Source: Nanobdellota archaeon (GTDB lineage: Archaea > Aenigmatarchaeota > Aenigmatarchaeia > QMZP01). From it: a stretch of DNA of 52,704 bases. Positions 10,666 through 52,560 of the stretch are shown in pieces; within the stretch, counting starts at the first letter, position 1; every line of letters starts with the position of its first letter. The notes under the pieces were generated by a model, which saw only the letters and a program-made list of their open reading frames with translations, searched no databases and was not told where the DNA came from. Both the position numbers and the translations under genes were made by a program. The stretch spans positions 1-52,704 of the forward strand of contig JBDRJQ010000035.1 of assembly GCA_043814765.1 (NCBI GenBank), read 5' to 3'.

Positions 10666-10799
10666 TGGACCCGGGGGGATTTGAACCCCCAGCCTCTTGC
10701 ATTTCGTAAACCTCTGGAAGCGTAAGCTCCTTTTGGATTAAACCTTTTCTTGAAAAAGGTTTATGCCGAGCAAGTGATCTACCGTTGATCTACAGGCCC
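10666..10799 (-). tRNA. tRNA-Ala(GGC) with a 62-nt intron at 37/38 (10702-10763); C at position 33
   Basis: G3:U70 acceptor pair, CTTGC/GCAAG anticodon stem, GTTCAAAT T-loop, BHB-like junction. Confidence 0.88.
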
Positions 10800-10839
10800 A
10801 TGTAAAGAAATATGTTGAATAGTATTAAAATAGAAGCAA

Positions 10840-10912
10840 TGGGTCCGGCAGGATTTGAACCTGCGACCCCCGCCTTGTAAGGGCGGTGTCATAACCACTA
10901 GACCACGGACCC
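10840..10912 (-). tRNA. tRNA-Val(TAC), intronless
   Basis: GGGTCCG/CGGACCC-A acceptor; CCGCC-CT-TAC-AA-GGCGG. Confidence 0.97.
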
Positions 10913-10922
10913 GGGATGCTGA

Positions 10923-10948
10923 GACGACTATATTCAGTATAAGTCGTC
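10923..10948 (-). repeat. tRNA-leader hairpin (family B)
   Basis: GACGACT-N12-AGTCGTC ending 10 nt upstream of tRNA-Val(TAC). Confidence 0.65.
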
Positions 10949-10991
10949 AACCATGATATAACAATTCAATATAATGATATAAATATATCGA

Positions 10992-11237
10992 TTATATTAT
11001 GAAAACACAGCTAGGCATAGTGATCATGCACATTCCTCTAATAAATGTCCTCACTATCCTTAAAACAAAAAAATCATTGCCAGACAGATAAAGTTTTTCT
11101 CCCTGCATGCCCATTACAAGCGGCTCGAAAGCGTCACCAGCACTGCCCACCTTGAAAAGAAATCCCATAAGCACTATTAGTACGATGAATATAAGCATTA
11201 AGATTACTCCGCCAAAATAACCTGAAACAATACCCAT
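10992..11237 (-). CDS. Small hypothetical membrane protein
   Basis: N-terminal TM helix; co-oriented downstream of the MazG-like gene. Confidence 0.5.
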   Translation of the reverse strand: MGIVSGYFGGVILMLIFIVLIVLMGFLFKVGSAGDAFEPLVMGMQGEKLYLSGNDFFVLRIVRTFIRGMCMITMPSCVFII

Positions 11238-51200: not shown

Positions 51201-51264
51201 ATTAAATTTATGTATCTGAGATATAAAAATAATATAATAGCCAATTATTTTTATAACAGTTATT

Positions 51265-51900
51265 TTATTTTTTAACAATGCCTGCTATCCCACCAACTAA
51301 AGCAAAAAATGGACCCAGGAAAAATATTGTAGATATTAAAAAATAGAAGCATGCTGCAATAATTGCCATAGAACCACCTATTCTCTCGCTTCCCCTTCTG
51401 TACATGATGAAAGCGCTTATCATTATAATCGCACTAAAAATTATTTTAATAGTCATCGATACCAATCCTGTTACAGAAATTGGAATTATATTGAAGATAA
51501 ACAGTCCAGCTGCTGATGAAAGCAAACTGGGATTTAAAAGCAGCAATATGAAACTATCAATAAAGAGCAGAACAGATCCTATCAATGTTAAATAAAAACC
51601 AAGCTTTGCGCGCTCACTTAATATAGCAGGCTTAAGCTTCTCTGTTTTCTTAATAGGTTCGCTTGGTTTGTCTGTTTTGCTGGATTTGCTTGTTCGCAAA
51701 AAGGACAGCGTTGATAGATATTTTGACAAATAATGAGATTTTTGATGAGGCTTCGGGAGTGCTCTTGCTTGTTTTAGAACATGCTCTATATCGCCAATAT
51801 AATAGCCAGCATCAAGCAATACGTCTTTTATAAGCTGTGGTTTGTAACCTTCGTTTATTTGCTCTTGAACATAGTCAGATAGTTTTTTTGAAACAGCCAT
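51265..51900 (-). CDS. Hypothetical membrane protein
   Basis: N-terminal YVQEQINEGY...LLDAGY helical motif, then several TM helices. Confidence 0.7.
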   Translation of the reverse strand: MAVSKKLSDYVQEQINEGYKPQLIKDVLLDAGYYIGDIEHVLKQARALPKPHQKSHYLSKYLSTLSFLRTSKSSKTDKPSEPIKKTEKLKPAILSERAKLGFYLTLIGSVLLFIDSFILLLLNPSLLSSAAGLFIFNIIPISVTGLVSMTIKIIFSAIIMISAFIMYRRGSERIGGSMAIIAACFYFLISTIFFLGPFFALVGGIAGIVKK

Positions 51901-51932
51901 GAATAATATTAGCTTTAATTACTGATAAGTTT

Positions 51933-52457
51933 TCATTCTTTATTTTCTTTCATGTAAGAAATAACTCTTTTTAGTGCCTCTTTGAACCAATATGTATATT
52001 TATCAGGATTTTCTTGTACATCCCTTTCCAGTTCTTCTGCACTAACCCATTTCCAGTCATCAACCTCTTTTGGGTTTGCAGAAGGCTCGCCGTCAAAGCT
52101 TCCGATAAAAACATGATCGTGTTCATGTTCAAACAAACCGTTATCAAACTTTATTTTGTAAGTAAAGCTGAAAATCCTTTTTAAGTCCGTATCAAACCCC
52201 ATCTCTTCCTTTAGTCTTCTGTGTATTGCCTCATCTAAAACTTCACCAGGTCTTGGATGGCTACAGCATGCGTTTGTCCATAATCCTCCACAGTGATATT
52301 TGCTCTTTGCTCTTTGATGAATCAACATCTCACCCTTTGAGTTGAAGACAAATATAGAAAACGCTCTATGCAGTTTTCCTTCCCGGTGCACCTGCATCTT
52401 CTTTTCTGTACCAATTTCTTGATCATTCTCGTCTATGAGTATAACATTTTCTTCCAT
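51933..52457 (-). CDS. idi: Isopentenyl-diphosphate delta-isomerase, type 1 (Nudix fold)
   Basis: LHRAFS, WTNACCSHP, RLKEEMG and EHEHDHVF motifs. Confidence 0.93.
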   Translation of the reverse strand: MEENVILIDENDQEIGTEKKMQVHREGKLHRAFSIFVFNSKGEMLIHQRAKSKYHCGGLWTNACCSHPRPGEVLDEAIHRRLKEEMGFDTDLKRIFSFTYKIKFDNGLFEHEHDHVFIGSFDGEPSANPKEVDDWKWVSAEELERDVQENPDKYTYWFKEALKRVISYMKENKE

Positions 52458-52528
52458 AAGCTTACCTAAACTTTAATTGTTTATTCATTTTAAATTTTCC
52501 TTTTATAAAGGGCTGTGTCATGCTTAAA

Positions 52529-52560
52529 TTTTTTGGATTAAACCCCTTTCTAAAGGTTTA
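52529..52560 (-). repeat. Extragenic family A repeat upstream of idi
   Basis: TAAACCTTTAGAAAGGGGTTTAATCCAAAAAA on the minus strand. Confidence 0.75.

Follow-up and report, generated by a model that had tools for sequence, protein, structure and literature searches.

How do introns arrive in archaeal tRNA genes? The question is raised by a stretch of 52,704 nt from a Nanobdellota archaeon (contig JBDRJQ010000035.1 of assembly GCA_043814765.1, positions 1 to 52,704; this whole stretch is the window), in which one small hairpin sequence, here called the module, makes up the body of tRNA introns and also lies free outside genes. The window is contig C35 of an 859-kb assembly in 39 contigs (genome G000; 37% G+C, 88% complete and about 92% coding by our own crude calling of open reading frames (ORFs), from which the gene neighbours given throughout also derive). 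Its host is presumably a member of a DPANN lineage. An initial annotation of the window had taken the repeat for a non-autonomous mobile element that uses tRNA splicing as a safe harbour. Our answer is related, and we hold it with moderate confidence: the module would be a small non-autonomous copy-and-paste unit that survives only where it is harmless and that forms tRNA introns.

One hairpin family in introns and spacers

The module is about 25-55 nt long. Hairpin 1 is a stem of 10 bp with the consensus TAAACCTTTT/AAAAGGTTTA, followed by an 8-nt tail, AUC(C/A)AAAA; these two parts constitute the short form, and the full form adds hairpin 2, GGAG(N)..(N)CUUCC, in which a U is bulged out. The predicted fold of many full copies pairs the UCC(A) of the tail with a (U)GGA located behind hairpin 2. 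There are variations on this plan, such as hairpin 2 nested within hairpin 1 (at C18:10364 and C20:18084 of G000) or inserts of 15-30 nt in the hairpin loop (in the relatives G012 and G019). A kink-turn or L7Ae site in hairpin 2 was considered and discarded upon reading, since the G.A pairs do not fit.

In order to count the copies we have used a covariance model (R1) of hairpin 1 plus tail (TAAACCTTTT-loop-AAAAGGTTTA-ATCCAAAA), which is short, so that its E-values are rough. Searched against the 0.86-Mb genome, R1 gave about 45 distinct copies, leaving out the reverse-strand echoes of the palindrome and four coding-repeat matches, and 10 copies are known in the window; the dispersed repeat of the initial annotation is therefore real. 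The four false positives of model or pattern that were excluded lie outside the window (C37:9476, C37:21765, C28:35399 and C33:16979). They belong to a Lys/Glu-rich coding repeat (..ENEPLEKVQPK..) whose sequence, GAACCTTTAGAAAAGGTTCAACCCAAA, looks like the module. A looser structural scan (any hairpin followed by a ATCCAAAA-like tail) returned 1067 matches, mostly noise, and was abandoned in favour of R1. Within the window, the exact pattern TAAACCTTTT-N4-6-AAAAGGTTTA occurs four times, against none in 100 shuffles, and AAAGGTTTAATCCAAAA at up to three mismatches nine times, against 0.75 expected. A search of Rfam with 20 extragenic loci gave no match.

The stem is maintained by compensatory change, as had been claimed from a few copies. 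Among 65 R1 matches from G000 and its relatives, 97.6% of the stem cells are paired and six of the ten pairs show changes on both sides (48 cells). None of 500 shuffles and no slid register comes near the observed level, although the alignment was fitted to R1 and the score is somewhat flattered by it. Compensated stems recognizable by eye are TAAACC/GGTTTA, GAAACC/GGTTTC, GCAACC/GGTTGC, TAATC/GATTA, GAAGC/GCTTC and CCTC/GAGG.

The copies in the window, together with the tRNA genes that contain them and related features, are the following:

10666-10799, minus strand: tRNA-Ala(GGC) with a 62-nt intron at 10702-10763 (Rfam tRNA match with a 68-nt insertion)
11589-11636, minus strand: full module, arms TAATC/GATTA, tail AACAAAAA, hairpin 2 GGAGCTAACGCTTCC (pattern search, reading and fold)
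13707-13768, minus strand: 59/60 T-loop intron of tRNA-Ser(UGA) (R1, 44.9 bits)
26567-26595, plus strand: decayed short copy, overlapped by 3 nt in its arm by the stop of the upstream gene (R1, 26.2 bits)
27864-27949, plus strand: second copy of the tRNA-Ser(CGA) promoter and 5' exon, closed by the 9 initial bases of the module (TAAACCTTT), 92% identical to 29100-29176
29121-29321, plus strand: tRNA-Ser(CGA), interrupted twice by module introns (29158-29215 at 37/38, 29245-29306 at 59/60; R1)
29381-29561, plus strand: tRNA-Val(GAC) with a 107-nt 59/60 intron at 29441-29547 (BHB TTCG / AA|A ... CGGA / AA|T, see below)
29819-29983, plus strand: tRNA-Leu whose T-loop intron belongs divergently to the family (CCCTTTCTTT..AGAAAGG ... 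CTTACCCCCAAAG) (reading)
39142-39173, plus strand: short module (hairpin 1 and ATCCAAAA), 2 nt past the stop of a 669-aa gene at 37134-39140 (R1, 46.2 bits)
41501-41637, plus strand: tRNA-Cys(GCA) with a 66-nt 37/38 intron at 41537-41602, stem CCTC/GAGG, tail ATCCAGAA, hairpin 2
52531-52561, minus strand: short module between genes, close to the end of the window, sense relative to the downstream gene (R1, 37.3 bits)

R1 itself matched the window at 10731-10764(-), 13736-13768(-), 29155-29188(+), 29245-29277(+), 29441-29474(+), 39142-39173(+), 41536-41571(+), 52531-52561(-) and, weakly, at 26567-26595(+). The copy at 11589-11636 is missing from this listing and was found by pattern search and reading.

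Splice-site geometry of the module introns

For the introns, plausible intervals around each copy were deleted, ARAGORN was asked for a tRNA, and the geometry of the bulge-helix-bulge (BHB) motif was scored. Thirteen copies yielded a tRNA, and in all 13 introns the best BHB has 3-nt bulges and a 5-bp flanking helix, with all four pairs of the central helix present in 11 of them and three of the four in the other two. Each of these introns starts immediately ahead of hairpin 1, its first base being 0 or 1 nt away from the 5' arm, so that hairpin 1 is the outer helix (h') beside the 5' splice bulge. At the other end the introns finish in four exon-complementary bases plus two more, AA in 12 of the 13 and AT in tRNA-Cys. 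This 3' end provides the central helix as well as the 3' bulge, so that the insert would be cut out in its entirety by the splicing endonuclease, and the BHB geometry predicts such removal in vivo. Along these lines, taking out the insert converted tRNA-Cys, tRNA-Ala, tRNA-Asn and tRNA-Arg(CCT) into canonical tRNAs according to ARAGORN (4 of 4 tested). The idea of splicing as a safe harbour fits, given that hairpin 1 takes the role of h' in the BHB.

Six intron placements proposed initially, at 37/38 in Ala, Cys and Ser(CGA) and at 59/60 in Ser(UGA), Ser(CGA) and Val(GAC), all stand, five of them by the best BHB and Ser(CGA) 37/38 by the ARAGORN call. The Ala intron consists of hairpin 1 (10739-10763), the tail ATCCAAAA (10731-10738), hairpin 2 (10716-10730), a second GGTTTA and CGA+AA, and its best BHB is TCGG / CA|T ... 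ACGA / AA|T. The Ser(UGA) intron has hairpin 1 at 13744-13767, the tail at 13736-13743, hairpin 2 at 13719-13735 and the 3' end CGGA+AA, with the BHB TTCG / AA|A ... CGGA / AA|T and a flanking helix of 5 bp; this same BHB is found at the T-loop of Ser(CGA), for which ARAGORN gives tRNA-Ser(cga) i(38,58) after removal of the T-loop insert. The longer Val(GAC) intron contains hairpin 1, the tail and a hairpin 2 that holds a nested third hairpin, and an extragenic relative of this long form exists at C20:33830. For Cys the BHB is CTGC / AG|T ... GCAG / AT|A.

Genome-wide there are 16 intron copies, seven of them at 59/60, and their hosts are Ala, Cys, Asn, Arg, Ser (three genes), Val, Leu, Pro (two), Thr and others, at 37/38 and 59/60. 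The 3' ends fall in classes common to several hosts, specifically CG(G/A)(A/G)+AA in T-loops with TTCG and GCAG in Cys and Asn. The anticodon loop of Ala, GCTCGGCA, resembles the T-loop GTTCGAAA and carries a related, T-loop-type 3' end (CGA+AA). A plausible interpretation is that whole introns are copied and survive only where the 3' end of the donor fits. Two other ideas were discarded: a target-site duplication of a palindromic target (TTCGAA, CTGCAG) as the origin of the central helix fits five of the 13 introns and is not general, and the short module was not accepted as a minimal intron with Hb = AUCC, as the upstream flanks of the extragenic copies have no GGAU.

ARAGORN and Rfam recover only part of the tRNA set of G000, and annotators should be aware that tRNAs with T-loop introns get missed. 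The anticodon loop of tRNA-Ala(GGC) (10764-10770, UCGGCAU) has a C at position 33 in place of the near-universal U. G000, G001 and G009 are alike in this, which makes it a trait of the lineage and no effect of the intron.

Uninterrupted orthologues

The genomes used for comparison are metagenome-assembled genomes (MAGs) with a completeness of 83-96% (G012 95%, G027 96%). One of them, G001, is a congener of G000 with flanking coding DNA 70-78% identical. Empty alleles do exist, both for introns (Ala, Asn, Arg(CCT), Cys and Val(GAC) 59/60) and, in both directions between the two congeners, for intergenic copies. The gene for tRNA-Ala(GGC) is intronless in G001 and G009, with the same exon sequence. 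At 37/38 tRNA-Asn is uninterrupted in G027 and G005 (ARAGORN) and in G001 (by reading), the last having instead an unrelated minimal T-loop intron. Equally intronless are tRNA-Arg(CCT) in G004 and tRNA-Cys in G006, and G008 and G010 align contiguously over the Cys site; the T-loop of Val(GAC) is intact in G003, G029 and G001. The Cys intron is common to G000 and G001, with compensatory changes in the stem.

As these orthologues are uninterrupted at the sites, parsimony favours lineage-specific gains, and the module-bearing introns are most simply regarded as recent insertions of whole introns. That the module colonises pre-existing introns is ruled out, the orthologous genes being intronless. 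Judging from the sequences, intron positions turn over fast within the genus. The tRNA-Val(GAC) of G001 has two introns at positions unlike those of G000, and its tRNA-Asn (L088, C78) and tRNA-Phe (L070, C17) have T-loop introns of other hairpin families with a minimal plan: one base, a hairpin, four exon-complementary bases and AA. One family occupies tRNA introns and extragenic DNA, as the initial annotation held, and acts as an insertable, non-autonomous element.

Extragenic copies behind stop codons and tRNAs

Outside the tRNA genes the module is co-oriented with the upstream gene in 24 of 30 extragenic copies, and with at least one neighbour in 28 (p = 9e-7). The upstream stop falls within -4 to +3 of the start of the arm in 13 of those 24, against 3.2 expected from the spacer lengths (none of 200,000 simulations reaches 13). 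The stop codon itself, be it TAA, TAG or TGA, makes up the foot of the stem, with covarying changes in the opposite arm. This register recurs in other families of the class. Modules are also found within operons, for example in the rpl23-rpl2 spacer, and directly behind tRNAs. Specifically, the copy at 11589-11636 follows tRNA-Ser(GCT) (11637-11721), beginning 1 nt past its 3' end, and leaves about 12 nt to the ATG of the next gene, and similar cases are L053 in G001 and L074 and L077 in G129. The stop-codon register, the sense bias, the class-wide consensus (see below) and the copies directly 3' of tRNAs are all points that go beyond the initial annotation.

The two congeners share one intergenic site and two introns. 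Six sites have a copy in G000 only, including 39142-39173 and 26567-26595 of the window, and four (L044, L048, L055 and L057) in G001 only, where the G000 genes abut or overlap. In the alignment the site at 39142 is a clean indel of 31-32 nt behind the stop codon, with G001 empty. One possible repeat of 7-9 nt was seen at site L044 of G001. At the 3' junction of the 39142 insertion (39166-39198) there is a 13-nt tandem duplication, CCAAAAACTGATT twice, made up of the last 6 bases of the module and 7 of the flank, and the ACTGA that follows is common to this junction and to the copy at C29:87551.

A mobile unit or a functional RNA

These placements can be accommodated if new copies arise at the DNA level, apparently with need of neither a HUH transposase nor a reverse transcriptase, and selection then spares them only at harmless spots. 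Between genes the spared copies would be in sense, with the stop codon usually in the base of hairpin 1 or the module right after the 3' end of a tRNA; in a genome that is 92% coding, that spot alone would spare the promoter or ribosome-binding site of the next gene. In tRNAs, and in the 16S rRNA of a relative, hairpin 1 would come to lie directly 3' of the 5' splice bulge and act as h', with the last six bases of the insert supplying the central helix and the 3' bulge. Whole introns would be copied to sites that match the 3' end of the donor, of which the T-loops (TTCG/TTCA) take seven of the 16 intron copies.

Several observations weigh against a copy-and-paste unit of this kind. A sense bias is not predicted for a strand-blind insertion of DNA. 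The clean junction at 39142 shows no target-site duplication, and that the intergenic indels are insertions rather than deletions is a direction we infer from a comparison of two genomes with no outgroup. No mover gene was identified, and the negatives come from incomplete MAGs, in which a transposase or reverse transcriptase gene might be missed. Besides, stem and tail together have an average identity of 0.87 inside one genome and also 0.87 between genomes and families, and orthologous copies are intact while their coding flanks are 70-78% identical. Such conservation looks like purifying selection on a function, unlike what decaying selfish DNA would show.

The distribution across the class is part of this picture. 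The module is present in 20 of 251 genomes of the phylum (E <= 1e-4), belonging to at least eight families of one class, and the comparison within and between genomes found no genome-specific subfamilies, decay or concerted evolution. In G176, from another family, the 16S rRNA (L086, C1:185750-186080) has three mini-inserts (35, 43 and 41 nt) that interrupt it over a stretch of 331 nt, and the 43-nt insert is a module, TAAACTTTTT..AAAAAGTTTA ATCAAAAA, with BHB-like flanks GTGG CG| ... CCAC AA|. Short tandem arrays of the module occur at L003 (G012:C22), L002 (G019:C41) and L078 (G129:C2:419460-419790), with periods of about 122, 62 and 27 nt. A CRISPR repeat (hairpin plus 8-nt handle) was considered for them; the arrays repeat the 'spacer' too, and since the sequence between copies is also repeated they are plain tandem duplications and no CRISPR arrays.

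Taken with the sense bias, the lack of decay or drift points to a reader of the module sequence, and for this reason a functional RNA element is retained as a serious rival. According to it, the module would be mainly a cis-acting RNA whose hairpin and AUC(C/A)AAAA tail are read by a conserved host protein, with dispersal being secondary; possible roles are the protection or definition of mRNA and tRNA 3' ends, the coupling of translation between cistrons, or the chaperoning of pre-tRNAs for a broad-specificity endonuclease. The same consensus in at least eight families without genome-specific drift, orthologous copies kept through compensatory changes with the tail fixed, the sense module lying right where the preceding unit finishes (be it a stop codon, a tRNA 3' end or a 5' exon) and its presence inside operons such as rpl23-rpl2 all speak for it. 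However, only about 27 of roughly 900 genes carry the module, and the orthologous sites of the congener do without it, with neighbours that abut or overlap. Most sampled genomes have no module at the thresholds used (no R1 match in 28 of 41 relatives at E<=0.01 nor in 231 of the 251 phylum genomes at E<=1e-4), and the rival has no Rfam family, known binding protein or processing site to point to. Overall we regard a primarily functional RNA as a real possibility, though an improbable one. A role as RNA and mobility are not mutually exclusive.

Routes of spread and the search for a mover

A further rival is spread through RNA. Circular introns would pair by their four 3' bases with a target RNA, a reversed reaction of endonuclease and ligase would insert them, and the product would be copied to DNA. 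Every intron 3' end complements four exon bases that stand 2 nt ahead of the place of insertion. In addition, all intron copies and 28 of the 30 extragenic copies lie in transcribed sense, and introns that end alike occupy sites whose exon bases are identical or similar (Cys and Asn; T-loops and Ala). Nevertheless, reverse transcriptase genes (RVT_1, PF00078) were absent from eight of the ten module-bearing genomes searched (G000, G001, G012, G019, G024, G015, G031 and G129), which leaves the reintegration of intron circles, suggested initially, without an enzyme. The flanks of the short extragenic copies, upon reading, offer no BHB partner, and we know of no demonstration of the reversed endonuclease/ligase reaction. 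This route seems unlikely to us.

Still less is to be expected from a terminator-promoter cassette, in which the T-run of the 5' arm would stop the upstream transcript and the GAAAAGG-TTTAAT of the 3' arm would serve as TFB-recognition element and TATA box for the next gene. Leaderless-type promoters of G000 are A-rich at -38 to -31 and have a T-rich box at -30 to -27, a signal that the module matches only weakly. TTTAAT is found 21-30 nt before the next start in about seven copies, and at C28:9760 it precedes a tRNA gene by 30 nt. Yet genuine TATA boxes of G000 have at least eight A/T bases (ATTTAA, TTTAAA, TATATA), while the TTTAAT of the module is bounded by GG and CC; the variants TTGCAT, TTTCAT and CTTCAG keep the stem, the distance to the next ATG goes from 14 to more than 100 nt, a terminator or promoter within a tRNA intron would do harm, and the covariation indicates a folded strand. 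A generic terminator, which would have undone the initial interpretation, can be rejected since the tail is A-rich (AUCCAAAA) and not U-rich, the T-run being inside the 5' arm.

Finally, a repetitive extragenic palindrome (REP)/PATE-like element mobilised by a Y1 HUH enzyme that acts in trans (REP-associated tyrosine transposase (RAYT) or IS200/IS605 TnpA), the mover contemplated at first, is hardly credible: the module is a short extragenic palindrome behind genes, orientation-biased like bacterial REPs, and coexists with a Y1 gene in G024 and G031, but PF01797 has no match in the module-rich G000, G001, G012, G019 and G027 and appears mostly in module-free genomes (G008, G009, G010, G016, G021 and G030). 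As HUH and reverse transcriptase genes went undetected in most of the module-rich genomes searched, the movers of the initial annotation are unsupported. G000 has a single tyrosine recombinase, and a long element with the arms at its ends was not noticed there, though no dedicated search was made.

Other features of the window

The tRNA-Leu intron, listed in the initial annotation as a possible copy, is related, but divergent; its 3' end GGGGACGGAAA is identical in the Leu and Val introns. In the Leu orthologue of G001 hairpin 2 is nested inside the first hairpin and followed by TTATCCCAAAA. The three extragenic copies reported at the outset are all there (11589-11636, 39142-39173 and 52531-52561), and the decayed one near 26568 corresponds to the weak R1 match of 26.2 bits. 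The supposed copy at 27940, by contrast, is just the first 9 bases (TAAACCTTT) after the duplicated 5' exon of tRNA-Ser(CGA), and the site at 22586 is only a stretch resembling a 3' arm, with no R1 match, and so does not stand as a copy. The duplicate at 27864-27949 sits 1.14 kb upstream of the complete tRNA-Ser(CGA), and the sole long ORF between the two (28017-29000) encodes a Cys-rich protein of 327 aa with a signal peptide and a C-terminal anchor. Two more intron-bearing tRNAs (29651-29777 and 21218-21338, with canonical introns of 55 and 49 nt) are module-free, indicating that other intron families coexist in the window.

Significance and comparison with known systems

The arrival of tRNA introns has been left open by a 2026 census of the Asgard archaea (10.64898/2026.10.13.758758). 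Here the arriving unit is visible, with a defined sequence and fold, intronless alleles in a congener, free copies and a fixed splice-site geometry. The question becomes testable in this way: which sites accept the unit, whether hairpin 1 suffices as h' for the DPANN endonuclease and what agent does the copying. A bolder proposal, which we put forward only tentatively, is that the module is a vehicle of archaeal intron gain, a transposase-independent hairpin whose stem serves as h' and that becomes spliceable at once beside four exon bases matching its 3' end, seeding introns of tRNAs and 16S rRNA and settling at mRNA 3' ends as well, possibly by an RNA-guided or template-switching route. If true, one class-wide element would seed introns in both kinds of RNA and populate the 3' ends of mRNAs.

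A full-text search of the literature found no described repeat that spans introns and intergenic DNA. Several known systems share part of the features. Like bacterial REPs and bacterial interspersed mosaic elements, which are palindromes of about 35 nt just behind genes or between cistrons, the module is numerous, oriented and variable in presence; unlike the REP/RAYT system it has no Y1 HUH gene in five module-rich genomes and no GTAG-type head, and to our knowledge REPs do not form introns. It resembles miniature inverted-repeat transposable elements (MITEs) in being short, non-autonomous and dispersed, with arms readable as terminal inverted repeats. However, it is far smaller (25-55 nt), had no target-site duplication at 39142 nor any autonomous partner found, and its arms covary, so that, unlike in MITEs, it is the folded strand that is selected. 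The integron attC sites are similar in being covarying hairpins directly behind or overlapping a stop, in gene sense, with structure kept above sequence. They differ in their RYYYAAC/GTTRRRY core (the module ends in TAAACC ... GGTTTAAT) and in their cassette arrays, the module being present as single copies between housekeeping genes in a genome with one tyrosine recombinase only.

Two precedents are archaeal. In the mobile-element model of tRNA gene disruption in Caldiarchaeum (Sugahara et al., 2012, PMC3293823) the intron-bearing gene has a duplicate of a tRNA 5' fragment some 1-2 kb ahead of it, as in our window (27864-27949 versus 29080-29157), although here the intervening 1.14 kb encodes a Cys-rich secreted protein and no recombinase. 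The closest known system is that of the tRNA introns for which transposition was inferred in Thermoproteales (Fujishima et al., 2010, as summarised in PMC4090602), by a mechanism that a 2014 review called unknown. As that summary presents them, these introns are also absent from the orthologues of close relatives, require a BHB at the junctions and appear in similar form in unrelated isoacceptors and positions. Measured against the same summary, the module differs in having a DPANN host and not a crenarchaeal one and in being a defined hairpin-plus-tail unit, class-wide, that also occurs about 27 times elsewhere than in tRNA genes: after stop codons, after tRNAs and, in a relative, within the 16S rRNA.

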